DNA from: Nemertoderma westbladi
Lineage: Eukaryota > Animalia > Xenacoelomorpha
NCBI GenBank assembly: GCA_032718475.1
Contig: JAUCBJ010009095.1
Location: 1-64,000 of the forward strand
DNA length: 64,000 nt
Reading direction: 5' to 3'
Shown here: positions 11,138-61,396 of the stretch, one piece after another
Layout: every line of letters starts with the position of its first letter
Position numbering within the stretch: position 1 is the first letter of the stretch
Position numbers and translations under genes: made by a program
Notes under the pieces: model-generated
What the model saw: the letters and a program-made list of their open reading frames with translations, nothing else
Database searches by the model: none
What the model was told of the DNA's origin: nothing

Positions 11138-11564
<427 letters not shown>

Positions 11565-11598
11565 GGTAGCCATAAATGTCGGAAGCCATGGAATAAAT

Positions 11599-23264: not shown

Positions 23265-23960
23265 CATAAACCGGTTGTGGTTAACAATAATTACATAATA
23301 AGTAAGTAAATAGGCCCAGTCGGGTCTCTCTGTCTCTGTTTAATGCAGTTTTGTATTTATAACTATAAGAATACTGGAAATATGGAGTTAATTAATAATT
23401 TTATTAATAGCACAGCATGAATGACCGCAAATACCAAATATTATGTGTTAAGTTGATTTAAGAACTTAATTTAATTTTATACATTAAGGGAAAGGAACAG
23501 GTTACAGTGACTGTATTTTCTAACCAAAACAATAAACGAAAGTTAATTTAACTCAGGGTCAATTTACCATGGAGATAACTTTTTTAAATAGCGGTCAATG
23601 TGGGCCACTATCTGGTAAGTCTCCAGACTTTGTGCGAAATCCACGGCCTAAAACGGCCGAGAAAGCTTTACTTTTTTATATTAATAGTTTAAAACATTTT
23701 CTAAAAGGGCCGATTAATTATTAACGTTGTTACATTTATTTGAGAACAAACTGATTACGGATTATCATTGGATATTATGTTTCCTATGTAACGGATTATT
23801 AAGACGGATTCGCTTAGAGGTTCAATTCGTGCTGCAGTAATAATAATTACTTGTGCCGTGATTAATAGTTTAGCTGAGAGTTGTTTACGAGTTTCCACGG
23901 CTAATTCAATTCAATAGAATTACTTGCAGAGATATTGTATTTATTGGAATAAGGTCTGGT

Positions 23961-24265
23961 CTAGGCGAACTCAATGCCAGTAGCCGAGGTACCGAACCCG
24001 GGATTCGTGGCCCCACTCCGTCTCGATTTCGCGTAAGAAACCGCCAACCTCTTGCTCTCCCGTCGTTCCCCCTGTTTCTGGGCGTATCGGGCCAGACAGT
24101 ATAGACCCAGAACGATAAACACGAGGATGCTGACTACAACCAATGCCATGGCAACGATGATTAGGACCTGTATATGGGACCACAGAGGTCCGCTCTCGGT
24201 GTCCCCTATTGTTGGTTGTCTGTAGTCTGCCACACACTCACCGGCATTCCCAGAAACATCCACTC
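23961..24265 (-). CDS. VWA7-like membrane protein, terminal exon (TM helix and cytoplasmic tail)
   Basis: gttagcag|GA, phase 1; (G)VDVSGNAGEC...IQVLIIVAMALVVVSILVFIVLGLYCL-ARYAQKQ...NPGF...GIEFA*; joins in frame to exon 60947-61034. Confidence 0.88.
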
Positions 24266-24580
24266 CTGCTAACAATACATTTATAATAATATACATATTG
24301 TCTTAATGAAATTTTGACTATGATCATAAATAAGTTAGTAATAACAATGTTAATAATAAATTTATTAATTATTATTAACATCACAGCTGATAATACAACG
24401 GTCAGGTAATGTAACCTTTACAGCTCTATAAACAATACATCTGTGCACAGTCTGGTCGAGCCAATAAATAAATTTATAGTTGAATATATACGGGCTATAC
24501 GACAAACAATCGACTGTACCGTTCAACTGCAAACGCCGAGTATACACCAGTTACAGTGTACACCAGTTACAGTGTACACC

Positions 24581-27500
24581 ATAACAAATTCTTACCCCTC
24601 AATGTAACAACTCCAGTAATAATAACAAATTCTTACCCCTCAATGTAACAACTCCAGTAATAATAACAAATTCTTACCCCTCAATATAACAACTCCAGTA
24701 ATAATAACAAATTCTTACCCCTCAATGTAACAACTCCAGTAATAATAACAAATTCTTACCCCTCAATGTAACAACTCCAGTAATAATAACAAATTCTTAC
24801 CCCTCAATGTAACAACTCCAGTAATAATAACAAATTCTTACCCATCAATGTAACAACTCCAGTAATAATAACAAATTCTTACCCCTCCATGTAACAACTC
24901 CAGTAATAATAACAAATTCTTACCCCTCAATGTAACAACTCCAGTAATAATAACAAATTCTTACCCCACAATGTAACAACTCCAGTAATAATAACAAATT
25001 CTTACCCCTCAATGTAACAACTCCAGTAATAATAACAAATTCTTACCCCTCAATGTAACAACTCCAGTAATAATAACAAATTCTTACCCCTCAATGTAAC
25101 AACTCCAGTAATAATAACAAATTCTTACCCCTCAATGTAACAACTCCAGTAATAATAACAAATTCTTACCCCTCAATGTAACAACTCCAGTAATAATAAC
25201 AAATTCTTACCCCTCAATGTAACTAACAACTCCAGTAATAATAACAAATTCTTACCCCTCAATGTAACAACTCCAGTAATAATAACAAATTCTTACCCAT
25301 CAATGTAACAACTCCAGTAATAATAACAAATTCTTACCCCTCAATGTAACAACTCCAGTAATAATAACAAATTCTTACCCCACAATGTAACAACTCCAGT
25401 AATAATAACAAATTCTTACCCCTCAATGTAACAACTCCAGTAATAATAACAAATTCTTACCCCTCAATGTAACAACTCCAGTAATAATAACAAATTCTTA
25501 CCCCTCAATGTAACAACTCCAGTAATAATAACAAATTCTTACCCCTCAATGTAACAACTCCAGTAATAATAACAAATTCTTACCCCTCAATGTAACAACT
25601 CCAGTAATAATAACAAATTCTTACCCCTCAATGTAACAACTCCAGTAATAATAACAAATTCTTACCCCTCAATGTAACAACTCCAGTAATAATAACAAAT
25701 TCTTACCCCTCAATGTAACAACTCCAGTAATAATAACAAATTCTTACCCCTCAATGTAACAACTCCAGTAATAATAACAAATTCTTACCCCTCAATGTAA
25801 CAACTCCAGTAATAATAACAAATTCTTACCCATCAATGTAACAACTCCAGTAATAATAACAAATTCTTACCCCTCAATGTAACAACTCCAGTAATAATAA
25901 CAAATTCTTACCCCTCAATATAACAACTCCAGTAATAATAACAAATTCTTACCCCTCAATGTAACAACTCCAGTAATAATAACAAATTCTTACCCCACAA
26001 TGTAACAACTCCAGTAATAATAACAAATTCTTACCCCTCAATGTAACAACTCCAGTAATAATAACAAATTCTTACCCCACAATGTAACAACTCCAGTAAT
26101 AATAACAAATTCTTACCCCTCAATGTAACAACTCCAGTAATAATAACAAATTCTTACCCCTCAATGTAACAACTCCAGTAATAATAACAAATTCTTACCC
26201 CTCAATGTAACTAACAACTCCAGTAATAATAACAAATTCTTACCCCTCAATGTAACAACTCCAGTAATAATAACAAATTCTTACCCCTCCATGTAACAAC
26301 TCCAGTAATAATAACAAATTCTTACCCCTCAATGTAACAACTCCAGTAATAATAACAAATTCTTACCCCTCAATATAACAACTCCAGTAATAATAACAAA
26401 TTCTTACCCCTCAATGTAACAACTCCAGTAATAATAACAAATTCTTACCCCTCAATATAACAACTCCAGTAATAATAACAAATTCTTACCCCTCAATGTA
26501 ACAACTCCAGTAATAATAACAAATTCTTACCCCTCAATGTAACAACTCCAGTAATAATAACAAATTCTTACCCCTCCATGTAACAACTCCAGTAATAATA
26601 ACAAATTCTTACCCATCAATGTAACAACTCCAATAATAATAACAAATTCTTACCCCTCAATATAACAACTCCAGTAATAATAACAAATTCTTACCCCTCA
26701 ATGTAACAACTCCAGTAATAATAACAAATTCTTACCCCTCCATGTAACAACTCCAGTAATAATAACAAATTCTTACCCATCAATGTAACAACTCCAATAA
26801 TAATAACAAATTCTTACCCCTCAATGTAACAACTCCAGTAATAATAACAAATTCTTACCCCTCCATGTAACAACTCCAGTAATAATAACAAATTCTTACC
26901 CCTCAATGTAACAACTCCAGTAATAATAACAAATTCTTACCCTCAATATAACAACTCCAATAATAATAACAAATTCTTACCCCTCAATATAACAACTCCA
27001 GTAATAATAACAAATTCTTACCCCTCCATGTAACAACTCCAGTAATAATAACAAATTCTTACCCTCAATATAACAACTCCAATAATAATAACAAATTCTT
27101 ACCCCTCAATATAACAACTCCAGTAATAATAACAAATTCTTACCCCTCAATGTAACAACTCCAGTAATAATAACAAATTCTTACCCCTCAATGTAACAAC
27201 TCCAGTAATAATAACAAATTCTTACCCTCAATATAACAACTCCAGTAATAATAACAAATTCTTACCCCTCAATATAACAACTCCAGTAATAATAACAAAT
27301 TCTTACCCCTCAATGTAACAACTCCAGTAATAATAACAAATTCTTACCCCTCAATATAACAACTCCAGTAATAATAACAAATTCTTACCCCTCAATGTAA
27401 CAACTCCAGTAATAATAACAAATTCTTACCCCTCAATGTAACAACTCCAGTAATAATAACAAATTCTTACCCCTCAATATAACAACTCCAGTAATAATAA

Positions 27501-30500
27501 CAAATTCTTACCCCTCAATGTAACAACTCCAGTAATAATAACAAATTCTTACCCCTCAATGTAACAACTCCAGTAATAATAACAAATTCTTACCCCTCAA
27601 TGTAACAACTCCAGTAATAATAACAAATTCTTACCCCTCAATGTAACAACTCCAGTAATAATAACAAATTCTTACCCCTCAATGTAACAACTCCAGTAAT
27701 AATAACAAATTCTTACCCCTCAATGTAACAACTCCAGTAATAATAACAAATTCTTACCCCTCAATGTAACAACTCCAGTAATAATAACAAATTCTTACCC
27801 CTCAATGTAACAACTCCAGTAATAATAACAAATTCTTACCCCTCAATGTAACAACTCCAGTAATAATAACAAATTCTTACCCCTCAATGTAACAACTCCA
27901 GTAATAATAACAAATTCTTACCCCTCAATGTAACAACTCCAGTAATAATAACAAATTCTTACCCATCAATGTAACAACTCCAGTAATAATAACAAATTCT
28001 TACCCCTCAATATAACAACTCCAGTAATAATAACAAATTCTTACCCATCAATATAACAACTCCAGTAATAATAACAAATTCTTACCCCTCAATGTAACAA
28101 CTCCAGTAATAATAACAAATTCTTACCCCTCAATGTAACAACTCCAGTAATAATAACAAATTCTTACCCCTCAATGTAACAACTCCAGTAATAATAACAA
28201 ATTCTTACCCCTCAATGTAACAACTCCAGTAATAATAACAAATTCTTACCCCTCAATGTAACAACTCCAGTAATAATAACAAATTCTTACCCCTCAATGT
28301 AACAACTCCAGTAATAATAACAAATTCTTACCCCTCAATGTAACAACTCCAGTAATAATAACAAATTCTTACCCCTCAATATAACAACTCCAGTAATAAT
28401 AACAAATTTTTACCCCTCAATATAACAACTCCAGTAATAATAACAAATTCTTACCCATCAATATAACAACTCCAGTAATAATAACAAATTCTTACCCCTC
28501 AATGTAACAACTCCAGTAATAATAACAAATTCTTACCCCTCAATGTAACAACTCCAGTAATAATAACAAATTCTTACCCCTCAATGTAACAACTCCAGTA
28601 ATAATAACAAATTCTTACCCCTCAATGTAACAACTCCAGTAATAATAACAAATTCTTACCCCTCAATGTAACAACTCCAGTAATAATAACAAATTCTTAC
28701 CCCTCAATGTAACAACTCCAGTAATAATAACAAATTCTTACCCCTCAATGTAACAACTCCAGTAATAATAACAAATTCTTACCCCTCAATGTAACAACTC
28801 CAGTAATAATAACAAATTCTTACCCCTCCATGTAACAACTCCAGTAATAATAACAAATTCTTACCCATCAATGTAACAACTCCAGTAATAATAACAAATT
28901 CTTACCCCTCAATGTAACAACTCCAGTAATAATAACAAATTCTTACCCCTCAATGTAACAACTCCAGTAATAATAACAAATTCTTACCCCTCAATGTAAC
29001 AACTCCAGTAATAATAACAAATTCTTACCCCTCAATGTAACAACTCCAGTAATAATAACAAATTCTTACCCCTCAATGTAACAACTCCAGTAATAATAAC
29101 AAATTCTTACCCCTCCATGTAACAACTCCAGTAATAATAACAAATTCTTACCCCTCAATGTAACAACTCCAGTAATAATAACAAATTCTTACCCCTCAAT
29201 GTAACAACTCCAGTAATAATAACAAATTCTTACCCCTCAATGTAACAACTCCAGTAATAATAACAAATTCTTACCCATCAATGTAACAACTCCAATAATA
29301 ATAACAAATTCTTACCCCTCAATGTAACAACTCCAGTAATAATAACAAATTCTTACCCCTCAATGTAACAACTCCAGTAATAATAACAAATTCTTACCCC
29401 TCCATGTAACAACTCCAGTAATAATAACAAATTCTTACCCCTCAATGTAACAACTCCAGTAATAATAACAAATTCTTACCCCTCAATGTAACAACTCCAG
29501 TAATAATAACAAATTCTTACCCCTCAATGTAACAACTCCAGTAATAATAACAAATTCTTACCCCTCAATGTAACAACTCCAGTAATAATAACAAATTCTT
29601 ACCCCTCAATGTAACAACTCCAGTAATAATAACAAATTCTTACCCATCAATGTAACAACTCCAGTAATAATAACAAATTCTTACCCATCAATGTAACAAC
29701 TCCAGTAATAATAACAAATTCTTACCCATCAATGTAACAACTCCAGTAATAATAACAAATTCTTACCCATCAATGTAACAACTCCAATAATAATAACAAA
29801 TTCTTACCCCTCAATGTAACAACTCCAGTAATAATAACAAATTCTTACCCATCAATGTAACAACTCCAGTAATAATAACAAATTCTTACCCATCAATGTA
29901 ACAACTCCAGTAATAATAACAAATTCTTACCCATCAATGTAACAACTCCAGTAATAATAACAAATTCTTACCCCTCAATGTAACAACTCCAGTAATAATA
30001 ACAAATTCTTACCCCTCAATGTAACAACTCCAGTAATAATAACAAATTCTTACCCATCAATGTAACAACTCCAATAATAATAACAAATTCTTACCCCTCA
30101 ATGTAACAACTCCAGTAATAATAACAAATTCTTACCCCTCAATGTAACAACTCCAGTAATAATAACAAATTCTTACCCATCAATGTAACAACTCCAATAA
30201 TAATAACAAATTCTTACCCCTCAATGTAACAACTCCAGTAATAATAACAAATTCTTACCCCTCAATGTAACAACTCCAGTAATAATAACAAATTCTTACC
30301 CCTCAATGTAACAACTCCAGTAATAATAACAAATTCTTACCCCTCAATGTAACAACTCCAGTAATAATAACAAATTCTTACCCATCAATGTAACAACTCC
30401 AGTAATAATAACAAATTCTTACCCCTCAATATAACAACTCCAGTAATAATAACAAATTCTTACCCCTCAATATAACAACTCCAGTAATAATAACAAATTC

Positions 30501-33500
30501 TTACCCCTCAATATAACAACTCCAGTAATAATAACAAATTCTTACCCATCAATGTAACAACTCCAATAATAATAACAAATTCTTACCCCTCAATATAACA
30601 ACTCCAGTAATAATAACAAATTCTTACCCCTCAATGTAACAACTCCAGTAATAATAACAAATTCTTACCCCTCCATGTAACAACTCCAGTAATAATAACA
30701 AATTCTTACCCATCAATGTAACAACTCCAATAATAATAACAAATTCTTACCCCTCAATGTAACAACTCCAGTAATAATAACAAATTCTTACCCCTCAATG
30801 TAACTAACAACTCCAGTAATAATAACAAATTCTTACCCCTCAATGTAACAACTCCAGTAATAATAACAAATTCTTACCCATCAATGTAACAACTCCAGTA
30901 ATAATAACAAATTCTTACCCCTCAATGTAACAACTCCAGTAATAATAACAAATTCTTACCCCACAATGTAACAACTCCAGTAATAATAACAAATTCTTAC
31001 CCATCAATGTAACAACTCCAATAATAATAACAAATTCTTACCCCTCAATATAACAACTCCAGTAATAATAACAAATTCTTACCCCTCAATGTAACAACTC
31101 CAGTAATAATAACAAATTCTTACCCATCAATGTAACAACTCCAATAATAATAACAAATTCTTACCCCTCAATGTAACAACTCCAGTAATAATAACAAATT
31201 CTTACCCCTCAATGTAACAACTCCAGTAATAATAACAAATTCTTACCCCTCAATGTAACAACTCCAGTAATAATAACAAATTCTTACCCCTCAATGTAAC
31301 AACTCCAGTAATAATAACAAATTCTTACCCCTCAATGTAACAACTCCAGTAATAATAACAAATTCTTACCCCTCAATGTAACAACTCCAGTAATAATAAC
31401 AAATTCTTACCCCTCAATGTAACTAACAACTCCAGTAATAATAACAAATTCTTACCCCTCAATGTAACAACTCCAGTAATAATAACAAATTCTTACCCAT
31501 CAATGTAACAACTCCAGTAATAATAACAAATTCTTACCCCTCAATGTAACAACTCCAGTAATAATAACAAATTCTTACCCCTCAATGTAACAACTCCAGT
31601 AATAATAACAAATTCTTACCCCTCAATGTAACAACTCCAGTAATAATAACAAATTCTTACCCCTCAATGTAACAACTCCAGTAATAATAACAAATTCTTA
31701 CCCCTCAATGTAACAACTCCAGTAATAATAACAAATTCTTACCCCTCAATGTAACAACTCCAGTAATAATAACAAATTCTTACCCCTCAATGTAACAACT
31801 CCAGTAATAATAACAAATTCTTACCCCTCAATGTAACAACTCCAGTAATAATAACAAATTCTTACCCCTCAATGTAACAACTCCAGTAATAATAACAAAT
31901 TCTTACCCCTCAATGTAACAACTCCAGTAATAATAACAAATTCTTACCCCTCAATGTAACAACTCCAGTAATAATAACAAATTCTTACCCCTCAATGTAA
32001 CAACTCCAGTAATAATAACAAATTCTTACCCCTCAATGTAACAACTCCAGTAATAATAACAAATTCTTACCCCTCAATGTAACAACTCCAGTAATAATAA
32101 CAAATTCTTACCCCTCAATGTAACAACTCCAGTAATAATAACAAATTCTTACCCCTCAATGTAACAACTCCAGTAATAATAACAAATTCTTACCCCTCAA
32201 TGTAACAACTCCAGTAATAATAACAAATTCTTACCCCTCAATGTAACAACTCCAGTAATAATAACAAATTCTTACCCCTCAATGTAACAACTCCAGTAAT
32301 AATAACAAATTCTTACCCCTCAATGTAACAACTCCAGTAATAATAACAAATTCTTACCCCTCAATGTAACAACTCCAGTAATAATAACAAATTCTTACCC
32401 CTCAATGTAACAACTCCAGTAATAATAACAAATTCTTACCCCTCAATGTAACAACTCCAGTAATAATAACAAATTCTTACCCCTCAATGTAACAACTCCA
32501 GTAATAATAACAAATTCTTACCCCTCAATGTAACAACTCCAGTAATAATAACAAATTCTTACCCCTCAATGTAACAACTCCAGTAATAATAACAAATTCT
32601 TACCCCTCAATGTAACAACTCCAGTAATAATAACAAATTCTTACCCCTCAATGTAACAACTCCAGTAATAATAACAAATTCTTACCCCTCAATGTAACAA
32701 CTCCAGTAATAATAACAAATTCTTACCCCTCAATGTAACAACTCCAGTAATAATAACAAATTCTTACCCCTCAATGTAACAACTCCAGTAATAATAACAA
32801 ATTCTTACCCCTCAATGTAACAACTCCAGTAATAATAACAAATTCTTACCCCTCAATGTAACAACTCCAGTAATAATAACAAATTCTTACCCCTCAATGT
32901 AACAACTCCAGTAATAATAACAAATTCTTACCCCTCAATGTAACAACTCCAGTAATAATAACAAATTCTTACCCCTCAATGTAACAACTCCAGTAATAAT
33001 AACAAATTCTTACCCCTCAATGTAACAACTCCAGTAATAATAACAAATTCTTACCCCTCAATGTAACAACTCCAGTAATAATAACAAATTCTTACCCCTC
33101 AATGTAACAACTCCAGTAATAATAACAAATTCTTACCCCTCAATGTAACAACTCCAGTAATAATAACAAATTCTTACCCCTCAATGTAACAACTCCAGTA
33201 ATAATAACAAATTCTTACCCCTCAATGTAACAACTCCAGTAATAATAACAAATTCTTACCCCTCAATGTAACAACTCCAGTAATAATAACAAATTCTTAC
33301 CCCTCAATGTAACAACTCCAGTAATAATAACAAATTCTTACCCCTCAATGTAACAACTCCAGTAATAATAACAAATTCTTACCCCTCAATGTAACAACTC
33401 CAGTAATAATAACAAATTCTTACCCCTCAATGTAACAACTCCAGTAATAATAACAAATTCTTACCCCTCAATGTAACAACTCCAGTAATAATAACAAATT

Positions 33501-36500
33501 CTTACCCCTCAATGTAACAACTCCAGTAATAATAACAAATTCTTACCCCTCAATGTAACAACTCCAGTAATAATAACAAATTCTTACCCCTCAATGTAAC
33601 AACTCCAGTAATAATAACAAATTCTTACCCCTCAATGTAACAACTCCAGTAATAATAACAAATTCTTACCCCTCAATGTAACAACTCCAGTAATAATAAC
33701 AAATTCTTACCCCTCAATGTAACAACTCCAGTAATAATAACAAATTCTTACCCCTCAATGTAACAACTCCAGTAATAATAACAAATTCTTACCCCTCAAT
33801 GTAACAACTCCAGTAATAATAACAAATTCTTACCCCTCAATGTAACAACTCCAGTAATAATAACAAATTCTTACCCCTCAATGTAACAACTCCAGTAATA
33901 ATAACAAATTCTTACCCCTCAATGTAACAACTCCAGTAATAATAACAAATTCTTACCCCTCAATGTAACAACTCCAGTAATAATAACAAATTCTTACCCC
34001 TCAATGTAACAACTCCAGTAATAATAACAAATTCTTACCCCTCAATGTAACAACTCCAGTAATAATAACAAATTCTTACCCCTCAATGTAACAACTCCAG
34101 TAATAATAACAAATTCTTACCCCTCAATGTAACAACTCCAGTAATAATAACAAATTCTTACCCCTCAATGTAACAACTCCAGTAATAATAACAAATTCTT
34201 ACCCCTCAATGTAACAACTCCAGTAATAATAACAAATTCTTACCCCTCAATGTAACAACTCCAGTAATAATAACAAATTCTTACCCCTCAATGTAACAAC
34301 TCCAGTAATAATAACAAATTCTTACCCCTCAATGTAACAACTCCAGTAATAATAACAAATTCTTACCCCTCAATGTAACAACTCCAGTAATAATAACAAA
34401 TTCTTACCCCTCAATGTAACAACTCCAGTAATAATAACAAATTCTTACCCCTCAATGTAACAACTCCAGTAATAATAACAAATTCTTACCCCTCAATGTA
34501 ACAACTCCAGTAATAATAACAAATTCTTACCCCTCAATGTAACAACTCCAGTAATAATAACAAATTCTTACCCCTCAATGTAACAACTCCAGTAATAATA
34601 ACAAATTCTTACCCCTCAATGTAACAACTCCAGTAATAATAACAAATTCTTACCCCTCAATGTAACAACTCCAGTAATAATAACAAATTCTTACCCCTCA
34701 ATGTAACAACTCCAGTAATAATAACAAATTCTTACCCCTCAATGTAACAACTCCAGTAATAATAACAAATTCTTACCCCTCAATGTAACAACTCCAGTAA
34801 TAATAACAAATTCTTACCCCTCAATGTAACAACTCCAGTAATAATAACAAATTCTTACCCATCAATGTAACAACTCCAGTAATAATAACAAATTCTTACC
34901 CCTCAATGTAACAACTCCAGTAATAATAACAAATTCTTACCCCTCAATGTAACAACTCCAGTAATAATAACAAATTCTTACCCCTCAATGTAACAACTCC
35001 AGTAATAATAACAAATTCTTACCCCTCAATGTAACAACTCCAGTAATAATAACAAATTCTTACCCCTCAATGTAACAACTCCAGTAATAATAACAAATTC
35101 TTACCCCTCAATGTAACAACTCCAGTAATAATAACAAATTCTTACCCCTCAATGTAACAACTCCAGTAATAATAACAAATTCTTACCCCTCAATGTAACA
35201 ACTCCAGTAATAATAACAAATTCTTACCCCTCAATGTAACAACTCCAGTAATAATAACAAATTCTTACCCCTCAATGTAACAACTCCAGTAATAATAACA
35301 AATTCTTACCCCTCAATGTAACAACTCCAGTAATAATAACAAATTCTTACCCCTCAATGTAACAACTCCAGTAATAATAACAAATTCTTACCCCTCAATG
35401 TAACAACTCCAGTAATAATAACAAATTCTTACCCCTCAATGTAACAACTCCAGTAATAATAACAAATTCTTACCCCTCAATGTAACAACTCCAGTAATAA
35501 TAACAAATTCTTACCCCTCAATGTAACAACTCCAGTAATAATAACAAATTCTTACCCCTCAATGTAACAACTCCAGTAATAATAACAAATTCTTACCCCT
35601 CAATGTAACAACTCCAGTAATAATAACAAATTCTTACCCCTCAATGTAACAACTCCAGTAATAATAACAAATTCTTACCCCTCAATGTAACAACTCCAGT
35701 AATAATAACAAATTCTTACCCCTCAATGTAACAACTCCAGTAATAATAACAAATTCTTACCCCTCAATGTAACAACTCCAGTAATAATAACAAATTCTTA
35801 CCCCTCAATGTAACAACTCCAGTAATAATAACAAATTCTTACCCCTCAATGTAACAACTCCAGTAATAATAACAAATTCTTACCCCTCAATGTAACAACT
35901 CCAGTAATAATAACAAATTCTTACCCCTCAATGTAACAACTCCAGTAATAATAACAAATTCTTACCCCTCAATGTAACAACTCCAGTAATAATAACAAAT
36001 TCTTACCCCTCAATGTAACAACTCCAGTAATAATAACAAATTCTTACCCCTCAATGTAACAACTCCAGTAATAATAACAAATTCTTACCCATCAATGTAA
36101 CAACTCCAGTAATAATAACAAATTCTTACCCCTCAATGTAACAACTCCAGTAATAATAACAAATTCTTACCCCTCAATGTAACAACTCCAGTAATAATAA
36201 CAAATTCTTACCCCTCAATGTAACAACTCCAGTAATAATAACAAATTCTTACCCCTCAATGTAACAACTCCAGTAATAATAACAAATTCTTACCCCTCAA
36301 TGTAACAACTCCAGTAATAATAACAAATTCTTACCCATCAATGTAACAACTCCAGTAATAATAACAAATTCTTACCCCTCAATGTAACAACTCCAGTAAT
36401 AATAACAAATTCTTACCCCTCAATGTAACAACTCCAGTAATAATAACAAATTCTTACCCATCAATGTAACAACTCCAGTAATAATAACAAATTCTTACCC

Positions 36501-39500
36501 CTCAATGTAACAACTCCAGTAATAATAACAAATTCTTACCCCTCAATGTAACAACTCCAGTAATAATAACAAATTCTTACCCATCAATGTAACAACTCCA
36601 GTAATAATAACAAATTCTTACCCCTCAATGTAACAACTCCAGTAATAATAACAAATTCTTACCCCTCAATGTAACAACTCCAGTAATAATAACAAATTCT
36701 TACCCCTCAATGTAACAACTCCAGTAATAATAACAAATTCTTACCCCTCAATGTAACAACTCCAGTAATAATAACAAATTCTTACCCCTCAATGTAACAA
36801 CTCCAGTAATAATAACAAATTCTTACCCCTCAATGTAACAACTCCAGTAATAATAACAAATTCTTACCCCTCAATGTAACAACTCCAGTAATAATAACAA
36901 ATTCTTACCCCTCAATGTAACAACTCCAGTAATAATAACAAATTCTTACCCCTCAATGTAACAACTCCAGTAATAATAACAAATTCTTACCCCTCAATGT
37001 AACAACTCCAGTAATAATAACAAATTCTTACCCCTCAATGTAACAACTCCAGTAATAATAACAAATTCTTACCCCTCAATGTAACAACTCCAGTAATAAT
37101 AACAAATTCTTACCCCTCAATGTAACAACTCCAGTAATAATAACAAATTCTTACCCCTCAATGTAACAACTCCAGTAATAATAACAAATTCTTACCCCTC
37201 AATGTAACAACTCCAGTAATAATAACAAATTCTTACCCCTCAATGTAACAACTCCAGTAATAATAACAAATTCTTACCCCTCAATGTAACAACTCCAGTA
37301 ATAATAACAAATTCTTACCCATCAATGTAACAACTCCAGTAATAATAACAAATTCTTACCCCTCAATGTAACAACTCCAGTAATAATAACAAATTCTTAC
37401 CCCTCAATGTAACAACTCCAGTAATAATAACAAATTCTTACCCCTCAATGTAACAACTCCAGTAATAATAACAAATTCTTACCCCTCAATGTAACAACTC
37501 CAGTAATAATAACAAATTCTTACCCCTCAATGTAACAACTCCAGTAATAATAACAAATTCTTACCCCTCAATGTAACAACTCCAGTAATAATAACAAATT
37601 CTTACCCCTCAATGTAACAACTCCAGTAATAATAACAAATTCTTACCCCTCAATGTAACAACTCCAGTAATAATAACAAATTCTTACCCATCAATGTAAC
37701 AACTCCAGTAATAATAACAAATTCTTACCCCTCAATGTAACAACTCCAGTAATAATAACAAATTCTTACCCCTCAATGTAACAACTCCAGTAATAATAAC
37801 AAATTCTTACCCCTCAATGTAACAACTCCAGTAATAATAACAAATTCTTACCCCTCAATGTAACAACTCCAGTAATAATAACAAATTCTTACCCCTCAAT
37901 GTAACAACTCCAGTAATAATAACAAATTCTTACCCCTCAATGTAACAACTCCAGTAATAATAACAAATTCTTACCCATCAATGTAACAACTCCAGTAATA
38001 ATAACAAATTCTTACCCCTCAATGTAACAACTCCAGTAATAATAACAAATTCTTACCCCTCAATGTAACAACTCCAGTAATAATAACAAATTCTTACCCC
38101 TCAATGTAACAACTCCAGTAATAATAACAAATTCTTACCCCTCAATGTAACAACTCCAGTAATAATAACAAATTCTTACCCCTCAATGTAACAACTCCAG
38201 TAATAATAACAAATTCTTACCCCTCAATGTAACAACTCCAGTAATAATAACAAATTCTTACCCCTCAATGTAACAACTCCAGTAATAATAACAAATTCTT
38301 ACCCCTCAATGTAACAACTCCAGTAATAATAACAAATTCTTACCCCTCAATGTAACAACTCCAGTAATAATAACAAATTCTTACCCCTCAATGTAACAAC
38401 TCCAGTAATAATAACAAATTCTTACCCCTCAATGTAACAACTCCAGTAATAATAACAAATTCTTACCCCTCAATGTAACAACTCCAGTAATAATAACAAA
38501 TTCTTACCCCTCAATGTAACAACTCCAGTAATAATAACAAATTCTTACCCCTCAATGTAACAACTCCAGTAATAATAACAAATTCTTACCCCTCAATGTA
38601 ACAACTCCAGTAATAATAACAAATTCTTACCCCTCAATGTAACAACTCCAGTAATAATAACAAATTCTTACCCCTCAATGTAACAACTCCAGTAATAATA
38701 ACAAATTCTTACCCCTCAATGTAACAACTCCAGTAATAATAACAAATTCTTACCCCTCAATGTAACAACTCCAGTAATAATAACAAATTCTTACCCCTCA
38801 ATGTAACAACTCCAGTAATAATAACAAATTCTTACCCCTCAATGTAACAACTCCAGTAATAATAACAAATTCTTACCCCTCAATGTAACAACTCCAGTAA
38901 TAATAACAAATTCTTACCCCTCAATGTAACAACTCCAGTAATAATAACAAATTCTTACCCCTCAATGTAACAACTCCAGTAATAATAACAAATTCTTACC
39001 CCTCAATGTAACAACTCCAGTAATAATAACAAATTCTTACCCCTCAATGTAACAACTCCAGTAATAATAACAAATTCTTACCCCTCAATGTAACAACTCC
39101 AGTAATAATAACAAATTCTTACCCATCAATGTAACAACTCCAGTAATAATAACAAATTCTTACCCCTCAATGTAACAACTCCAGTAATAATAACAAATTC
39201 TTACCCCTCAATGTAACAACTCCAGTAATAATAACAAATTCTTACCCCTCAATGTAACAACTCCAGTAATAATAACAAATTCTTACCCATCAATGTAACA
39301 ACTCCAGTAATAATAACAAATTCTTACCCATCAATGTAACAACTCCAGTAATAATAACAAATTCTTACCCCTCAATGTAACAACTCCAGTAATAATAACA
39401 AATTCTTACCCCTCAATGTAACAACTCCAGTAATAATAACAAATTCTTACCCNNNNNNNNNNNNNNNNNNNNNNNNNNNNNNNNNNNNNNNNNNNNNNNN

Positions 39501-42500
39501 NNNNNNNNNNNNNNNNNNNNNNNNNNNNNNNNNNNNNNNNNNNNNNNNNNNNATTCTTACCCATCAATGTAACAACTCCAGTAATAATAACAAATTCTTA
39601 CCCCTCAATGTAACAACTCCAGTAATAATAACAAATTCTTACCCCTCAATGTAACAACTCCAGTAATAATAACAAATTCTTACCCATCAATGTAACAACT
39701 CCAGTAATAATAACAAATTCTTACCCCTCAATGTAACAACTCCAGTAATAATAACAAATTCTTACCCATCAATGTAACAACTCCAGTAATAATAACAAAT
39801 TCTTACCCCTCAATGTAACAACTCCAGTAATAATAACAAATTCTTACCCCTCAATGTAACAACTCCAGTAATAATAACAAATTCTTACCCCTCAATGTAA
39901 CAACTCCAGTAATAATAACAAATTCTTACCCCTCAATGTAACAACTCCAGTAATAATAACAAATTCTTACCCCTCAATGTAACAACTCCAGTAATAATAA
40001 CAAATTCTTACCCCTCAATGTAACAACTCCAGTAATAATAACAAATTCTTACCCCTCAATGTAACAACTCCAGTAATAATAACAAATTCTTACCCCTCAA
40101 TGTAACAACTCCAGTAATAATAACAAATTCTTACCCCTCAATGTAACAACTCCAGTAATAATAACAAATTCTTACCCCTCAATGTAACAACTCCAGTAAT
40201 AATAACAAATTCTTACCCCTCAATGTAACAACTCCAGTAATAATAACAAATTCTTACCCCTCAATGTAACAACTCCAGTAATAATAACAAATTCTTACCC
40301 CTCAATGTAACAACTCCAGTAATAATAACAAATTCTTACCCCTCAATGTAACAACTCCAGTAATAATAACAAATTCTTACCCCTCAATGTAACAACTCCA
40401 GTAATAATAACAAATTCTTACCCCTCAATGTAACAACTCCAGTAATAATAACAAATTCTTACCCCTCAATGTAACAACTCCAGTAATAATAACAAATTCT
40501 TACCCCTCAATGTAACAACTCCAGTAATAATAACAAATTCTTACCCCTCAATGTAACAACTCCAGTAATAATAACAAATTCTTACCCCTCAATGTAACAA
40601 CTCCAGTAATAATAACAAATTCTTACCCCTCAATGTAACAACTCCAGTAATAATAACAAATTCTTACCCCTCAATGTAACAACTCCAGTAATAATAACAA
40701 ATTCTTACCCCTCAATGTAACAACTCCAGTAATAATAACAAATTCTTACCCCTCAATGTAACAACTCCAGTAATAATAACAAATTCTTACCCCTCAATGT
40801 AACAACTCCAGTAATAATAACAAATTCTTACCCCTCAATGTAACAACTCCAGTAATAATAACAAATTCTTACCCCTCAATGTAACAACTCCAGTAATAAT
40901 AACAAATTCTTACCCCTCAATGTAACAACTCCAGTAATAATAACAAATTCTTACCCCTCAATGTAACAACTCCAGTAATAATAACAAATTCTTACCCCTC
41001 AATGTAACAACTCCAGTAATAATAACAAATTCTTACCCCTCAATGTAACAACTCCAGTAATAATAACAAATTCTTACCCCTCAATGTAACAACTCCAGTA
41101 ATAATAACAAATTCTTACCCCTCAATGTAACAACTCCAGTAATAATAACAAATTCTTACCCCTCAATGTAACAACTCCAGTAATAATAACAAATTCTTAC
41201 CCATCAATGTAACAACTCCAGTAATAATAACAAATTCTTACCCCTCAATGTAACAACTCCAGTAATAATAACAAATTCTTACCCCTCAATGTAACAACTC
41301 CAGTAATAATAACAAATTCTTACCCCTCAATGTAACAACTCCAGTAATAATAACAAATTCTTACCCCTCAATGTAACAACTCCAGTAATAATAACAAATT
41401 CTTACCCCTCAATGTAACAACTCCAGTAATAATAACAAATTCTTACCCCTCAATGTAACAACTCCAGTAATAATAACAAATTCTTACCCCTCAATGTAAC
41501 AACTCCAGTAATAATAACAAATTCTTACCCCTCAATGTAACAACTCCAGTAATAATAACAAATTCTTACCCCTCAATGTAACAACTCCAGTAATAATAAC
41601 AAATTCTTACCCCTCAATGTAACAACTCCAGTAATAATAACAAATTCTTACCCCTCAATGTAACAACTCCAGTAATAATAACAAATTCTTACCCCTCAAT
41701 GTAACAACTCCAGTAATAATAACAAATTCTTACCCCTCAATGATAACAACTCCAGTAATAATAACAAATTCTTACCCCTCAATGTAACAACTCCAGTAAT
41801 AATAACAAATTCTTACCCCTCAATGTAACAACTCCAGTAATAATAACAAATTCTTACCCATCAATGTAACAACTCCAGTAATAATAACAAATTCTTACCC
41901 CTCAATGAACTAACAACTCCAGTAATAATAACAAATTCTTACCCCTCAATGTAACAACTCCAGTAATAATAACAAATTCTTACCCCTCAATGTAACAACT
42001 CCAGTAATAATAACAAATTCTTACCCCTCAATGTAACAACTCCAGTAATAATAACAAATTCTTACCCCTCAATGTAACAACTCCAGTAATAATAACAAAT
42101 TCTTACCCCTCAATGTAACAACTCCAGTAATAATAACAAATTCTTACCCCTCAATGTAACAACTCCAGTAATAATAACAAATTCTTACCCCTCAATGTAA
42201 CAACTCCAGTAATAATAACAAATTCTTACCCCTCAATGTAACAACTCCAGTAATAATAACAAATTCTTACCCCTCAATGTAACAACTCCAGTAATAATAA
42301 CAAATTCTTACCCCTCAATGTAACAACTCCAGTAATAATAACAAATTCTTACCCCTCAATGTAACAACTCCAGTAATAATAACAAATTCTTACCCCTCAA
42401 TGTAACAACTCCAGTAATAATAACAAATTCTTACCCCTCAATGTAACAACTCCAGTAATAATAACAAATTCTTACCCCTCAATGTAACAACTCCAGTAAT

Positions 42501-51500: not shown

Positions 51501-54500
51501 CAATGTAACAACTCCAGTAATAATAACAAATTCTTACCCATCAATGTAACAACTCCAGTAATAATAACAAATTCTTACCCCTCAATGTAACAACTCCAGT
51601 AATAATAACAAATTCTTACCCATCAATGTAACAACTCCAGTAATAATAACAAATTCTTACCCCTCAATGTAACAACTCCAGTAATAATAACAAATTCTTA
51701 CCCATCAATGTAACAACTCCAGTAATAATAACAAATTCTTACCCCTCAATGTAACAACTCCAGTAATAATAACAAATTCTTACCCCTCAATGTAACAACT
51801 CCAGTAATAATAACAAATTCTTACCCCTCAATGTAACAACTCCAGTAATAATAACAAATTCTTACCCCTCAATGTAACAACTCCAGTAATAATAACAAAT
51901 TCTTACCCCTCAATGTAACAACTCCAGTAATAATAACAAATTCTTACCCCTCAATGTAACAACTCCAGTAATAATAACAAATTCTTACCCCTCAATGTAA
52001 CAACTCCAGTAATAATAACAAATTCTTACCCCTCAATGTAACAACTCCAGTAATAATAACAAATTCTTACCCCTCAATGTAACAACTCCAGTAATAATAA
52101 CAAATTCTTACCCCTCAATGTAACAACTCCAGTAATAATAACAAATTCTTACCCCTCAATGTAACAACTCCAGTAATAATAACAAATTCTTACCCATCAA
52201 TGTAACAACTCCAGTAATAATAACAAATTCTTACCCCTCAATGTAACAACTCCAGTAATAATAACAAATTCTTACCCCTCAATGTAACAACTCCAGTAAT
52301 AATAACAAATTCTTACCCCTCAATGTAACAACTCCAGTAATAATAACAAATTCTTACCCCTCAATGTAACAACTCCAGTAATAATAACAAATTCTTACCC
52401 CTCAATGTAACAACTCCAGTAATAATAACAAATTCTTACCCCTCAATGTAACAACTCCAGTAATAATAACAAATTCTTACCCCTCAATGTAACAACTCCA
52501 GTAATAATAACAAATTCTTACCCCTCAATGTAACAACTCCAGTAATAATAACAAATTCTTACCCCTCAATGTAACAACTCCAGTAATAATAACAAATTCT
52601 TACCCATCAATGTAACAACTCCAGTAATAATAACAAATTCTTACCCCTCAATGTAACAACTCCAGTAATAATAACAAATTCTTACCCCTCAATGTAACAA
52701 CTCCAGTAATAATAACAAATTCTTACCCCTCAATGTAACAACTCCAGTAATAATAACAAATTCTTACCCATCAATGTAACAACTCCAGTAATAATAACAA
52801 ATTCTTACCCCTCAATGTAACAACTCCAGTAATAATAACAAATTCTTACCCCTCAATGTAACAACTCCAGTAATAATAACAAATTCTTACCCCTCAATGT
52901 AACAACTCCAGTAATAATAACAAATTCTTACCCCTCAATGTAACAACTCCAGTAATAATAACAAATTCTTACCCCTCAATGTAACAACTCCAGTAATAAT
53001 AACAAATTCTTACCCCTCAATGTAACAACTCCAGTAATAATAACAAATTCTTACCCCTCAATGTAACAACTCCAGTAATAATAACAAATTCTTACCCCTC
53101 AATGTAACAACTCCAGTAATAATAACAAATTCTTACCCCTCAATGTAACAACTCCAGTAATAATAACAAATTCTTACCCCTCAATGTAACAACTCCAGTA
53201 ATAATAACAAATTCTTACCCCTCAATGTAACAACTCCAGTAATAATAACAAATTCTTACCCATCAATGTAACAACTCCAGTAATAATAACAAATTCTTAC
53301 CCCTCAATGTAACAACTCCAGTAATAATAACAAATTCTTACCCCTCAATATAACAACTCCAGTAATAATAACAAATTCTTACCCCTCAATGATAACAACT
53401 CCAGTAATAATAACAAATTCTTACCCCTCAATGACTAACAACTCCAGTAATAATAACAAATTCTTACCCCTCAATGTAACAACTCCAGTAATAATAACAA
53501 ATTCTTACCCCTCAATGTAACAACTCCAGTAATAATAACAAATTCTTACCCCTCAATGTAACAACTCCAGTAATAATAACAAATTCTTACCCATCAATGT
53601 AACAACTCCAGTAATAATAACAAATTCTTACCCCTCAATGTAACAACTCCAGTAATAATAACAAATTCTTACCCCTCAATGTAACAACTCCAGTAATAAT
53701 AACAAATTCTTACCCCTCAATGTAACAACTCCAGTAATAATAACAAATTCTTACCCCTCAATGTAACAACTCCAGTAATAATAACAAATTCTTACCCCTC
53801 AATGTAACAACTCCAGTAATAATAACAAATTCTTACCCCTCAATGTAACAACTCCAGTAATAATAACAAATTCTTACCCCTCAATGTAACAACTCCAGTA
53901 ATAATAACAAATTCTTACCCCTCAATGTAACAACTCCAGTAATAATAACAAATTCTTACCCCTCAATGTAACAACTCCAGTAATAATAACAAATTCTTAC
54001 CCCTCAATGTAACAACTCCAGTAATAATAACAAATTCTTACCCATCAATGTAACAACTCCAGTAATAATAACAAATTCTTACCCCTCAATGTAACAACTC
54101 CAGTAATAATAACAAATTCTTACCCCTCAATGTAACAACTCCAGTAATAATAACAAATTCTTACCCCTCAATGTAACAACTCCAGTAATAATAACAAATT
54201 CTTACCCCTCAATGTAACAACTCCAGTAATAATAACAAATTCTTACCCCTCAATGTAACAACTCCAGTAATAATAACAAATTCTTACCCCTCAATGTAAC
54301 AACTCCAGTAATAATAACAAATTCTTACCCCTCAATGTAACAACTCCAGTAATAATAACAAATTCTTACCCCTCAATGTAACAACTCCAGTAATAATAAC
54401 AAATTCTTACCCCTCAATGTAACAACTCCAGTAATAATAACAAATTCTTACCCCTCAATGTAACAACTCCAGTAATAATAACAAATTCTTACCCCTCAAT

Positions 54501-57500
54501 GTAACAACTCCAGTAATAATAACAAATTCTTACCCCTCAATGTAACACAACTCCAGTAATAATAACAAATTCTTACCCATCAATGTAACAACTCCAGTAA
54601 TAATAACAAATTCTTACCCATCAATGTAACAACTCCAGTAATAATAACAAATTCTTACCCCTCAATGTAACAACTCCAGTAATAATAACAAATTCTTACC
54701 CCTCAATGTAACAACTCCAGTAATAATAACAAATTCTTACCCCTCAATGTAACAACTCCAGTAATAATAACAAATTCTTACCCCTCAATGTAACAACTCC
54801 AGTAATAATAACAAATTCTTACCCCACAATGTAACAACTCCAGTAATAATAACAAATTCTTACCCCTCAATGTAACAACTCCAGTAATAATAACAAATTC
54901 TTACCCCTCAATGTAACAACTCCAGTAATAATAACAAATTCTTACCCCTCAATGTAACAACTCCAGTAATAATAACAAATTCTTACCCATCAATGTAACA
55001 ACTCCAGTAATAATAACAAATTCTTACCCCTCAATGTAACAACTCCAGTAATAATAACAAATTCTTACCCCTCAATGTAACAACTCCAGTAATAATAACA
55101 AATTCTTACCCCTCAATGTAACAACTCCAGTAATAATAACAAATTCTTACCCCTCAATGTAACAACTCCAGTAATAATAACAAATTCTTACCCCTCAATG
55201 TAACAACTCCAGTAATAATAACAAATTCTTACCCCTCAATGTAACAACTCCAGTAATAATAACAAATTCTTACCCCTCAATGTAACAACTCCAGTAATAA
55301 TAACAAATTCTTACCCCTCAATGTAACAACTCCAGTAATAATAACAAATTCTTACCCCTCAATGTAACAACTCCAGTAATAATAACAAATTCTTACCCCT
55401 CAATGTAACAACTCCAGTAATAATAACAAATTCTTACCCCTCAATGTAACAACTCCAGTAATAATAACAAATTCTTACCCATCAATGTAACAACTCCAGT
55501 AATAATAACAAATTCTTACCCCTCAATGTAACAACTCCAGTAATAATAACAAATTCTTACCCCTCAATGTAACAACTCCAGTAATAATAACAAATTCTTA
55601 CCCCTCAATGTAACAACTCCAGTAATAATAACAAATTCTTACCCCTCAATGTAACAACTCCAGTAATAATAACAAATTCTTACCCCTCAATGTAACAACT
55701 CCAGTAATAATAACAAATTCTTACCCCTCAATGTAACAACTCCAGTAATAATAACAAATTCTTACCCCTCAATGTAACAACTCCAGTAATAATAACAAAT
55801 TCTTACCCCTCAATGTAACAACTCCAGTAATAATAACAAATTCTTACCCCTCAATGTAACAACTCCAGTAATAATAACAAATTCTTACCCCTCAATGTAA
55901 CTAACAACTCCAGTAATAATAACAAATTCTTACCCCTCAATGTAACAACTCCAGTAATAATAACAAATTCTTACCCCTCAATGTAACAACTCCAGTAATA
56001 ATAACAAATTCTTACCCATCAATGTAACAACTCCAGTAATAATAACAAATTCTTACCCCTCAATGTAACAACTCCAGTAATAATAACAAATTCTTACCCC
56101 TCAATGTAACAACTCCAGTAATAATAACAAATTCTTACCCCTCAATGTAACAACTCCAGTAATAATAACAAATTCTTACCCCTCAATGTAACAACTCCAG
56201 TAATAATAACAAATTCTTACCCCTCAATGTAACAACTCCAGTAATAATAACAAATTCTTACCCATCAATGATAACAACTCCAGTAATAATAACAAATTCT
56301 TACCCCTCAATGTAACAACTCCAGTAATAATAACAAATTCTTACCCCTCAATGTAACAACTCCAGTAATAATAACAAATTCTTACCCCTCAATGTAACAA
56401 CTCCAGTAATAATAACAAATTCTTACCCCTCAATGTAACAACTCCAGTAATAATAACAAATTCTTACCCCTCAATGTAACAACTCCAGTAATAATAACAA
56501 ATTCTTACCCCTCAATGTAACAACTCCAGTAATAATAACAAATTCTTACCCATCAATGTAACAACTCCAGTAATAATAACAAATTCTTACCCCTCAATGT
56601 AACAACTCCAGTAATAATAACAAATTCTTACCCATCAATGTAACAACTCCAGTAATAATAACAAATTCTTACCCCTCAATGTAACAACTCCAGTAATAAT
56701 AACAAATTCTTACCCATCAATGATAACAACTCCAGTAATAATAACAAATTCTTACCCCTCAATGTAACAACTCCAGTAATAATAACAAATTCTTACCCAT
56801 CAATGATAACAACTCCAGTAATAATAACAAATTCTTACCCATCAATGTAACAACTCCAGTAATAATAACAAATTCTTACCCCTCAATGTAACAACTCCAG
56901 TAATAATAACAAATTCTTACCCCTCAATGTAACAACTCCAGTAATAATAACAAATTCTTACCCCTCAATGTAACAACTCCAGTAATAATAACAAATTCTT
57001 ACCCCTCAATGTAACAACTCCAGTAATAATAACAAATTCTTACCCATCAATGATAACAACTCCAGTAATAATAACAAATTCTTACCCCTCAATGTAACAA
57101 CTCCAGTAATAATAACAAATTCTTACCCCTCAATGTAACAACTCCAGTAATAATAACAAATTCTTACCCCTCAATGTAACAACTCCAGTAATAATAACAA
57201 ATTCTTACCCCTCAATGTAACAACTCCAGTAATAATAACAAATTCTTACCCCTCAATGTAACAACTCCAGTAATAATAACAAATTCTTACCCCTCAATGT
57301 AACAACTCCAGTAATAATAACAAATTCTTACCCATCAATATAACAACTCCAGTAATAATAACAAATTCTTACCCCTCAATGTAACAACTCCAGTAATAAT
57401 AACAAATTCTTACCCATCAATATAACAACTCCAGTAATAATAACAAATTCTTACCCCTCAATGTAACAACTCCAGTAATAATAACAAATTCTTACCCATC

Positions 57501-60500
57501 AATATAACAACTCCAGTAATAATAACAAATTCTTACCCCTCAATGTAACAACTCCAGTAATAATAACAAATTCTTACCCCTCAATGTAACAACTCCAGTA
57601 ATAATAACAAATTCTTACCCCTCAATGTAACAACTCCAGTAATAATAACAAATTCTTACCCATCAATGTAACTAACAACTCCAGTAATAATAACAAATTC
57701 TTACCCATCAATGTAACTAACAACTCCAGTAATAATAACAAATTCTTACCCCTCAATGTAACAACTCCAGTAATAATAACAAATTCTTACCCATCAATGT
57801 AACTAACAACTCCAGTAATAATAACAAATTCTTACCCCTCAATGTAACAACTCCAGTAATAATAACAAATTCTTACCCATCAATATAACAACTCCAGTAA
57901 TAATAACAAATTCTTACCCCTCAATGTAACAACTCCAGTAATAATAACAAATTCTTACCCATCAATATAACAACTCCAGTAATAATAACAAATTCTTACC
58001 CATCAATATAACAACTCCAGTAATAATAACAAATTCTTACCCCTCAATGTAACAACTCCAGTAATAATAACAAATTCTTACCCATCAATGTAACTAACAA
58101 CTCCAGTAATAATAACAAATTCTTACCCATCAATGTAACTAACAACTCCAGTAATAATAACAAATTCTTACCCATCAATATAACAACTCCAGTAATAATA
58201 ACAAATTCTTACCCCTCAATGTAACAACTCCAGTAATAATAACAAATTCTTACCCATCAATGTAACTAACAACTCCAGTAATAATAACAAATTCTTACCC
58301 ATCAATGTAACTAACAACTCCAGTAATAATAACAAATTCTTACCCCTCAATGTAACAACTCCAGTAATAATAACAAATTCTTACCCCTCAATGTAACAAC
58401 TCCAGTAATAATAACAAATTCTTACCCCTCAATGTAACAACTCCAGTAATAATAACAAATTCTTACCCCTCAATGTAACAACTCCAGTAATAATAACAAA
58501 TTCTTACCCCTCAATGTAACAACTCCAGTAATAATAACAAATTCTTACCCCACAATGTAACAACTCCAGTAATAATAACAAATTCTTACCCGTCAATGTA
58601 ACAACTCCAGTAATAATAACAAATTCTTACCCATCAATATAACAACTCCAGTAATAATAACAAATTCTTACCCCTCAATGTAACAACTCCAGTAATAATA
58701 ACAAATTCTTACCCATCAATATAACAACTCCAGTAATAATAACAAATTCTTACCCCTCAATGTAACAACTCCAGTAATAATAACAAATTCTTACCCATCA
58801 ATATAACAACTCCAGTAATAATAACAAATTCTTACCCATCAATATAACAACTCCAGTAATAATAACAAATTCTTACCCATCAATATAACAACTCCAGTAA
58901 TAATAACAAATTCTTACCCATCAATGTAACTAACAACTCCAGTAATAATAACAAATTCTTACCCCTCAATATAACAACTCCAGTAATAATAACAAATTCT
59001 TACCCATCAATGTAACTAACAACTCCAGTAATAATAACAAATTCTTACCCATCAATGTAACTAACAACTCCAGTAATAATAACAAATTCTTACCCCTCAA
59101 TGTAACAACTCCAGTAATAATAACAAATTCTTACCCCTCAATGTAACAACTCCAGTAATAATAACAAATTCTTACCCCTCAATGTAACAACTCCAGTAAT
59201 AATAACAAATTCTTACCCCTCAATGTAACAACTCCAGTAATAATAACAAATTCTTACCCCTCAATGTAACAACTCCAGTAATAATAACAAATTCTTACCC
59301 CTCAATGTAACAACTCCAGTAATAATAACAAATTCTTACCCATCAATATAACAACTCCAGTAATAATAACAAATTCTTACCCCTCAATGTAACAACTCCA
59401 GTAATAATAACAAATTCTTACCCATCAATATAACAACTCCAGTAATAATAACAAATTCTTACCCCTCAATGTAACAACTCCAGTAATAATAACAAATTCT
59501 TACCCATCAATATAACAACTCCAGTAATAATAACAAATTCTTACCCCTCAATGTAACAACTCCAGTAATAATAACAAATTCTTACCCCTCAATGTAACAA
59601 CTCCAGTAATAATAACAAATTCTTACCCCTCAATGTAACAACTCCAGTAATAATAACAAATTCTTACCCCTCAATGTAACAACTCCAGTAATAATAACAA
59701 ATTCTTACCCATCAATGTAACTAACAACTCCAGTAATAATAACAAATTCTTACCCCTCAATGTAACAACACCAGTAATAATAACAAATTCTTACCCATCA
59801 ATGTAACTAACAACTCCAGTAATAATAACAAATTCTTACCCCTCAATGTAACAACTCCAGTAATAATAACAAATTCTTACCCCTCAATGTAACAACTCCA
59901 GTAATAATAACAAATTCTTACCCCTCAATGTAACAACTCCAGTAATAATAACAAATTCTTACCCATCAATGTAACAACTCCAGAAATAATAACAAATTCT
60001 TACCCATCAATGTAACAACTCCAGTAATAATAACAAATTCTTACCCCTCAATGTAACAACTCCAGTAATAACAACAAATTCTTACCCCACAATGTAACAA
60101 CTCCAGTAATAATAACAAATTCTTACCCCTCAATGTAACAACTCCAGTAATAATAACAAATTCTTACCCCTCAATGTAACAACTCCAGTAATAATAACAA
60201 ATTCTTACCCCTCAATGTAACAACTCCAGTAATAATAACAAATTCTTACCCCTCAATGTAACAACTCCAGTAATAATAACAAATTCTTACCCCTCCATGT
60301 AACAACTCCAGTAATAATAACAAATTCTTACCCCTCAATGTAACAACTCCAGTAATAATAACAAATTCTTACCCCTCCATGTAACAACTCCAGTAATAAT
60401 AACAAATTCTTACCCCTCAATGTAACAACTCCAGTAATAATAACAAATTCTTACCCCTCAATGTAACAACTCCAGTAATAATAACAAATTCTTACCCCTC

Positions 60501-60969
60501 AATGTAACAACTCCAGTAATAATAACAAATTCTTACCCCTCAATATAACAACTCCAGTAATAATAACAAATTCTTACCCCTCCATGTAACAACTCCAGTA
60601 ATAATAACAAATTCTTACCCCTCAATGTAACAACTCCAGTAATAATAACAAATTCTTACCCCTCAATGTAACAACTCCAGTAATAATAACAAATTCTTAC
60701 CCCTCAATGTAACAACTCCAGTAATAATAACAAATTCTTACCCATCAATGTAACAACTCCAATAATAATAACAAATTCTTACCCCTCAATGTAACAACTC
60801 CAATAATAATAACAAATTCTTACCCCTCAATGTAACAACTCCAGTAATAATAACAAATTCTTACCCCTCAATATAACAACTCCAGTAATAATAACAAATT
60901 CTTACCCCTCAATGTAACAACTCCAATAATAATAACAAATTCTTACCCCTCAATGTAACAACTCCAATA
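24581..60969. repeat. 41-bp satellite, ~885 assembled units (36.4 kb), filling the last intron of the VWA7-like gene
   Basis: Unit aacaaattcttacccctcaatgtaacaactccagtaataat; the minus strand reads ...GGAGTTGTTACATTGAGGG|gtaagaatttgttat; the last partial unit overlaps exon 60947-61034. Confidence 0.99.
39453..39552. other. Assembly gap (100 N) inside the satellite
   Basis: Run of exactly 100 N; true array length unknown. Confidence 0.99.
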
Positions 60970-61034
60970 CAACAAGATATATCAGTCCCAATTTGCACTG
61001 ATTCATTTAGTGGTTTATCTACAGACCAAATTAC
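60947..61034 (-). CDS. VWA7-like protein, penultimate exon
   Basis: ttttttatttcag|GTA...AGGG|gtaaga; 88 nt, phase 0-1; VIWSVDKPLNESVQIGTDISCCIGVVTLR(G); splicing yields SCC..V...VDVSGNAGEC, the VWA7-type C-terminal motif. Confidence 0.9.
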
Positions 61035-61219: not shown

Positions 61220-61396
61220 CTGGGTTTGTACCCCGTTTATTTCCTTTGAGATAGCCTTCAAACCTCCGCTGTCTGCGAAGGTTGCGTTCACGGTCCATCT
61301 CGCACCCAAACATATTTCAGTTTGGTTGTAATCCTTACAATCGGTTGCGTATGTTGAAGTCAATAATTCACATTTAGGACCAAAGCGATCAGGATT
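61220..61396 (-). CDS. VWA7-like protein, internal exon
   Basis: tattatag|AAT...CAG|gttata; 177 nt, phase 0-0; NPDRFGPKCELLTSTYATDCKDYNQTEICLGARWTVNATFADSGGLKAI matches the D...PxC..C..C....W.......D..GL pattern. Confidence 0.85.

Follow-up and report, generated by a model that had tools for sequence, protein, structure and literature searches.

An intron of a predicted Nemertoderma westbladi gene was found to consist almost wholly of copies of its own 5' splice site. The gene, a probable animal membrane-protein gene, lies on the minus strand of the 64,000-nt window (the whole stretch of DNA that was analysed), and the intron carries 882 donor copies in one tandem array. We consider it rather likely that the gene still works, with the first donor being chosen and the other 881 being removed as ordinary intron. 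The array is likely an extreme case of the known border-minisatellite oddity, and its new aspect is scale: it makes up 99% of a 36.7-kb intron, compared with 5-26 copies in the published cases.

TRF placed the 41-bp tandem array at 24581-60966 (minus strand), with 883.9 copies and 97% matches, and cutting it at the donor word on the minus strand gave 882 donor starts and 881 units, which bears out the count of about 885 in the first-pass annotation. Unit length ranged from 40 to 45 nt; 836 of the 881 units were 41 nt long and 638 were identical. There were 29 distinct unit types when the unit that holds the assembly gap was counted and 28 gap-free types. GT was kept in 882 of 882 donors, GTAAG in 881, and the full 11-nt context of the first donor was common to 743. 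The array starts at 60966, about 20 nt inside the 88-nt exon B (61034-60947), and its first monomer spans the exon/intron border, exon B being recognized here from sequence features alone. At the far end (24581), the first 15 intron bases are followed by 315 unique bases and then by the acceptor at 24266. Both the start within the exon and the return of unique intron about 315 bp from the acceptor were as first annotated. The annotated makeup of the unit (the end of the exon, the start of the intron and an added TAT) held as a layout, but the last 23 nt of the exon were exact in just 13 of the 881 units and the commonest unit is one base off them.

The host intron measures 36,681 nt as assembled, including a 100-N gap that could hide more, and would be 330 nt long without the array. 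The other two introns of the gene (436 and 185 nt) are close to 330 nt in length and were counted in favor of that array-free value. The proposed growth from about 330 bp to at least 36.6 kb agrees with these lengths and treats the 315-nt tail as the original intron sequence, which it presumably is. This AT-rich tail (24266-24580, minus strand) contains a TACTAAC word at 24340-24334, a possible branch point some 70 nt before the exon C acceptor, and ends in a tandem TAG-CAG acceptor (24271-24266) whose upstream AG would add one in-frame codon. A separate 16-bp repeat of 2.7 copies (24539-24581) starts exactly at the end of the main array.

The host gene is represented in the window by four exons on the minus strand. 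Exon Z (61833-62001, 169 nt) and exon A (61220-61396, 177 nt, phase 0-0, three cysteines) both have AG/GT borders and an open frame, and exon Z is predicted to form a three-strand beta sheet. Exon B, of phase 0-1, contains an SCC motif, has a pyrimidine-rich acceptor (0.86) and ends in a donor that matches 8 of 11 U1-pairing positions. This first 5' splice site (60936-60949, minus strand, with the intron running from 60946) is putatively the authentic one and is the sole donor from which the reading frame continues without a stop into exon C. Exon C (23961-24265, minus strand), which is likely terminal, completes a VD..GN.G.C motif and encodes a transmembrane segment (about 24167-24111; Kyte-Doolittle 19-residue maximum of 3.49), a basic tail and a stop codon. 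A candidate poly(A) signal, AATAAA (23940-23945, minus strand), lies 15 nt past this stop codon. The GC content of exon C was 0.55 vs. 0.31-0.33 in its flanks. Joined by their coordinates, exons Z, A, B and C gave a frame of 738 nt with no internal stop, a final stop and a spacing of eight residues between SCC and VD, in keeping with the earlier description of flanking exons that are open, compatible in phase 1 and able to rebuild the SCC...VD motif. The length of the exon C frame alone is weak evidence because it was reached in 100 of 300 composition-matched controls (and in 9 of 300 whole-region controls). The exon B acceptor directly precedes a GT (61037-61029, minus strand), and joining of exons A and B rebuilds a donor-like site that matches 8 of 11 U1-pairing positions, equal to exon B's own donor; if the rebuilt site were used, exon B would be left out and the reading frame would change. 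The first bases of exon Z are likewise GT.

Searches for the identity of the gene gave a lead only, which is toward VWA7-like proteins. We take the joined chain to resemble the C-terminal domains of such proteins, and an atlas search with exon Z returned a 'VWA7 Ig-like domain' cluster at rank 3 (score 0.76, below the trust line), 33% of whose members carry PF23619. The single-sequence model of exon Z had three strands (pLDDT 76.8), and none of 48,161 chains reached a Z of 5 in its fold search. The N-terminal VWA domain of a VWA7 protein would fall past position 64000, together with the 5' part of the gene. Pfam searches of single exons gave no matches for Z, A and B (0 of 3) and only sub-threshold transmembrane matches for exon C. 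Word searches returned 0 of 8 candidates for exon A and 0 of 156 for exon C, and no relatives of exon C were detected among 606 candidate stretches. Exon A had no usable match in the atlas search and no usable fold model (pLDDT 36), and both of its phmmer matches (a bacterial Cna-B repeat protein and a beetle trypsin) were rejected as sums over repeats. Rfam gave 0 matches, as did a search for the array repeat word in metagenome contigs.

All 881 later donors share an in-frame stop in the first unit, 12 codons past exon B, so only the first donor can yield the full protein; a transcript that used a later donor would meet this stop and lose the membrane anchor. In the splicing route that we propose, exon B would be defined by its upstream acceptor, which would cause the first donor to be bound first, and position rather than sequence would pick the donor. 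The array copies, which lack a strong acceptor in front of them, would remain silent, like those of intron 7 in human F7. On its transcribed strand, the array contained AGGT, CAG, CTRAY and AATAAA/ATTAAA 0 times each, and the polymerase could cross it because a poly(A) signal is lacking on that strand. U1 reportedly retains the nascent donor at the polymerase until an acceptor appears (an intron-loop model), suppresses premature polyadenylation and speeds the polymerase through long introns (PMC12216098). Given these reported roles, a U1-rich array without a poly(A) signal would be comparatively harmless filler, and poly(A) suppression and polymerase speeding by U1 could explain how the array is tolerated. 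Two other candidates were rejected. Predicted RNA structure showed no preference that would mark out the first donor, with an unpaired probability of 0.28 there and of 0.31-0.32 at donors 2-9. A coding role for the array is incompatible with the commonest unit, whose six frames each reach a stop within three units.

The choice of the first among about 885 donors had been put forward in the first-pass annotation as an extreme test of exon definition. The first donor is the only one that gives the full protein and F7-type arrays use the first donor, both of which agree with that claim, but the problem is not of a new kind since the border-repeat layout had been published and served as a model of 5' splice-site choice in 2006 (PMC1557585). 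Intron 7 of human F7 contains a 37-bp repeat, in 5-9 copies, that spans the border and whose later donors are functional and unused (PMC1557585, Borensztajn et al. 2006). The array described here resembles this VNTR in having its first monomer on the exon/intron border, identical donors downstream and a similar unit length. It differs in copy number (882 vs. 5-9) and in the exonic bases per unit (about 23 vs. 4), and whereas use of the most upstream donor was shown by experiment in F7, it is a prediction here. Donor-bearing repeats of 10-26 copies, none of them tens of kilobases long, are also described in 6-16, CBS, LAMIN B2 and PDGF. Only the first donor is used in the LAMIN B2 and PDGF intron 4 minisatellites, and the first donor plus two more are used in those of 6-16 intron 2 and CBS intron 13 (PMC1557585). 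Leakage to later donors is plausible by analogy because 6-16 and CBS use two further donors, and the first-donor rule may not scale because the published cases are 30-170 times smaller and come from mammals or lancelets.

A second likeness is to the amphioxus 'mirages' of Adh3, globin, troponin C and PGBD5, which are tandem duplications at exon/intron borders that reportedly leave splicing undisturbed (PMC3087553, PMC3902484) and whose interiors are uniform with more varied ends (PMC3087553). They too are invertebrate border repeats with interiors more homogenised than their ends, but those described have 2-7 units and some copy acceptors rather than donors. The array shares with the F7-type and 'mirage' layouts a border-spanning first monomer, reiterated near-identical donors and concerted evolution. 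The giant introns of Drosophila kl-3 and kl-5 are likewise almost wholly tandem repeat (PMC6508621, PMC11207136). Those introns hold megabases of simple satellites that are unrelated to splice sites and the genes are testis-specific, whereas the present intron derives its 36.7 kb from the gene's own junction; at 36,681 nt as assembled, it falls short of Y-loop-type gigantism, which runs from hundreds of kilobases to megabases. Recursively spliced introns are also long and contain internal donor-like sites, but their ratchet points need an acceptor directly before the donor, AG/GT (PMC6110457), and this juxtaposition is missing from the array. No donor arrays of hundreds of copies were found in the literature searched, mainly the main texts of open-access papers, and the array has about 34 times as many donors as the largest published case found there (26 donors).

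Variation among the units showed a pattern of concerted evolution, with a uniform interior and more varied ends, one varied interior patch excepted. The mean distance of units to the commonest unit was 0.47 differences. Over units 450-699 the commonest unit had a share of 88-100%, compared with 54% over the first 100 units, 56-74% over the last bins and 26% in the interior patch (units 250-299), and one stretch held 81 identical units in a row. Donor positions were conserved no better than the rest of the unit and there was no sign of selection on the donors: 4 of 13 substitution types fell in the 11 of 41 positions concerned (3.5 expected, p = 0.76), a comparison with little power owing to the few types. 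The TATTGG allele of the exon was present in 3 of the first 5 units vs. 40 of the remaining 876 (Fisher p = 0.001, for a first-5-unit window picked after inspection). The earlier claim that units next to the exon keep this allele holds as an enrichment, but the 40 further TATTGG units are clustered at units 246-376 and 721-831, so that the allele also occurs far from the exon.

Both the exon end and the intron start carry TTGTT..TAT.GG. We suggest that slippage at this shared word would have seeded the array by duplicating a short stretch that crosses the exon/intron border, that a TAT extension would have produced the 41-bp unit, and that unequal exchange or replication slippage would have amplified and homogenised it, latest in the centre. 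Intermediate units of 35-39 nt were not found among the array units (40-45 nt). Outside the main array, seven other tandem arrays cover 11,941 of the remaining 27,614 bases of the window, which argues that the genome is prone to such arrays, and tandem DNA accounts for 75.5% of the window. The array most likely represents a neutral satellite of recent amplification, tolerated as a passenger in a minisatellite-prone genome, and not a device.

The surroundings of the gene have several features of their own. A 45-bp array of 111 copies (16971-21969, minus strand) lies 2 kb past the host stop codon; on the strand of the gene it contains AATAAA 109 times and GTGAG 95 times, and one of its plus-strand frames is open for 601 codons, probably as a by-product of the 45-bp period. 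Two related elements of 1.2-1.3 kb (21981-23264 and 14450-15647) have long imperfect inverted arms and are foldback or MITE-like. Further arrays in 6340-16552 include 39 bp x 24 (with a 389-bp higher order), 99 bp x 25, TG x 211, 146 bp x 3 and 33 bp x 20. Upstream of exon Z is a decayed non-LTR retrotransposon, or LINE (62100-63700, minus strand), with 33 matches to relatives of the reverse transcriptase PF00078; organism names were attached to 3 of the 33, and these were the echinoderms Apostichopus and Amphiura. An 812-codon open frame without a Pfam match (3-2438, minus strand) runs off the window and includes a coding array with a 30-bp unit in about 67 copies (354-2361); upstream of the frame, near 5240-4920, lie small exon-like pieces.

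The main competitor to a working gene is a crippled allele or copy, which would be silenced or would fail in transcription or splicing over the 36-kb repeat, and whose exons would still be open only because little time has passed since the expansion. Long satellites often lie in heterochromatin, the array is young by its low divergence and its long run of identical units, and the decayed LINE lies just upstream of exon Z. We nevertheless judge this reading unlikely, given that the four exons and their splice sites are all intact and that the 28 gap-free unit types occur in local clusters, which implies that some time has elapsed. The megabase satellite introns of Drosophila, moreover, are described as transcribed (PMC6508621).

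Less probable again, and in our judgment doubtful, is an isoform switch in which donors 2 and 3 would lead to a truncated, anchor-less (secreted) protein, or in which units with a TAG would serve as 12-nt micro-exons or stepping stones. The shared stop ends 3, 44 and 85 nt before the junction when donors 2, 3 and 4 are used, respectively, and because nonsense-mediated decay follows a 50-55 nt rule, the products of donors 2 and 3 may escape it. The two extra donors of 6-16 and CBS would be a precedent. Two or three copies would be enough for such a switch, however, leaving 880 superfluous, and the truncation would probably cut the last domain ahead of its final strand. TAG arises from insertion variants in 30 units at 25255-59839 (minus strand), 12 of which lie within the first 80 units. 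A weak acceptor role for TAG could be envisaged in these 30 units, as 28 of them leave a 12-nt, stop-free, in-frame piece and their TTGTTAG is the word found before the exon C acceptor, but the sites have a pyrimidine tract of 50%, with a GAG a short way upstream, and a unit ending in a branch-like word precedes no more than 6 of the 30.

It is more doubtful still that the size of the array or the join across the gap is a product of assembly, whether as two contigs of the same satellite that were wrongly scaffolded or as a true array that is much shorter or longer. The 100-N gap (39453-39552), the sole gap in the window, falls in the most uniform zone of the array, and assemblies tend to break in such zones. 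Runs of identical units can collapse or inflate, and the two sides of the gap could derive from different haplotypes or paralogs. The sides, with 21,394 sequenced array bases toward the exon and 14,872 beyond the gap, nevertheless share orientation, and 9 of the 11 unit types on the far side, covering 359 of its 362 units, recur on the exon side. There was no double counting of one sequence since no runs with three or more variant units were shared between the sides and their best end-to-end overlap matched at just 2 of 6 informative units. Each side is also attached to the half of the single reading frame where it would be expected, and the exon side by itself amounts to 21.4 kb. The join across the gap is probably right.

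A functional array, removed stepwise at internal sites or acting through its nascent RNA as a U1 snRNP sponge that affects other genes, is the least likely reading and highly improbable: its 882 sites match 7-9 of 11 U1-pairing positions at 41-nt spacing, but donor positions are not preferentially conserved, and the stepwise processing suggested in the first-pass annotation lacks its motif, since juxtaposed AG/GT is needed (PMC6110457) and the array has 0 AGGT and 0 CAG. The suggested sponge would engage 2-25% of a pool of one million U1 at 1-5 starts per minute per allele, and more of a smaller pool, but just 0.2-0.5% at 0.1 starts per minute, so strong transcription would be needed for it to matter; all of these rates are assumed and the pool is that described for mammalian cells (PMC10870369).

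Gene predictors will probably split genes of this kind, which stand as a warning for gene prediction. The array brings together 'mirage' repeats and satellite-filled long introns, each of which was known before. Should the gene be expressed, the locus would serve as a naturally occurring stress test for commitment to a 5' splice site, in which a first donor is set against 881 near-identical rivals. A bolder proposal, to which we assign a low probability, is that an expressed gene removes, as a single piece, at least 36 kb made almost purely of 5' splice sites and that the array licenses its own growth, since each unit recruits U1 and lacks a poly(A) signal, and splicing from any wrong donor runs into a stop. 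If this were true, giant introns would arise preferentially by way of donor-bearing repeats, and the locus would offer a natural setting in which to ask whether U1 tethered to the polymerase retains the first donor while 881 near-identical ones go by.
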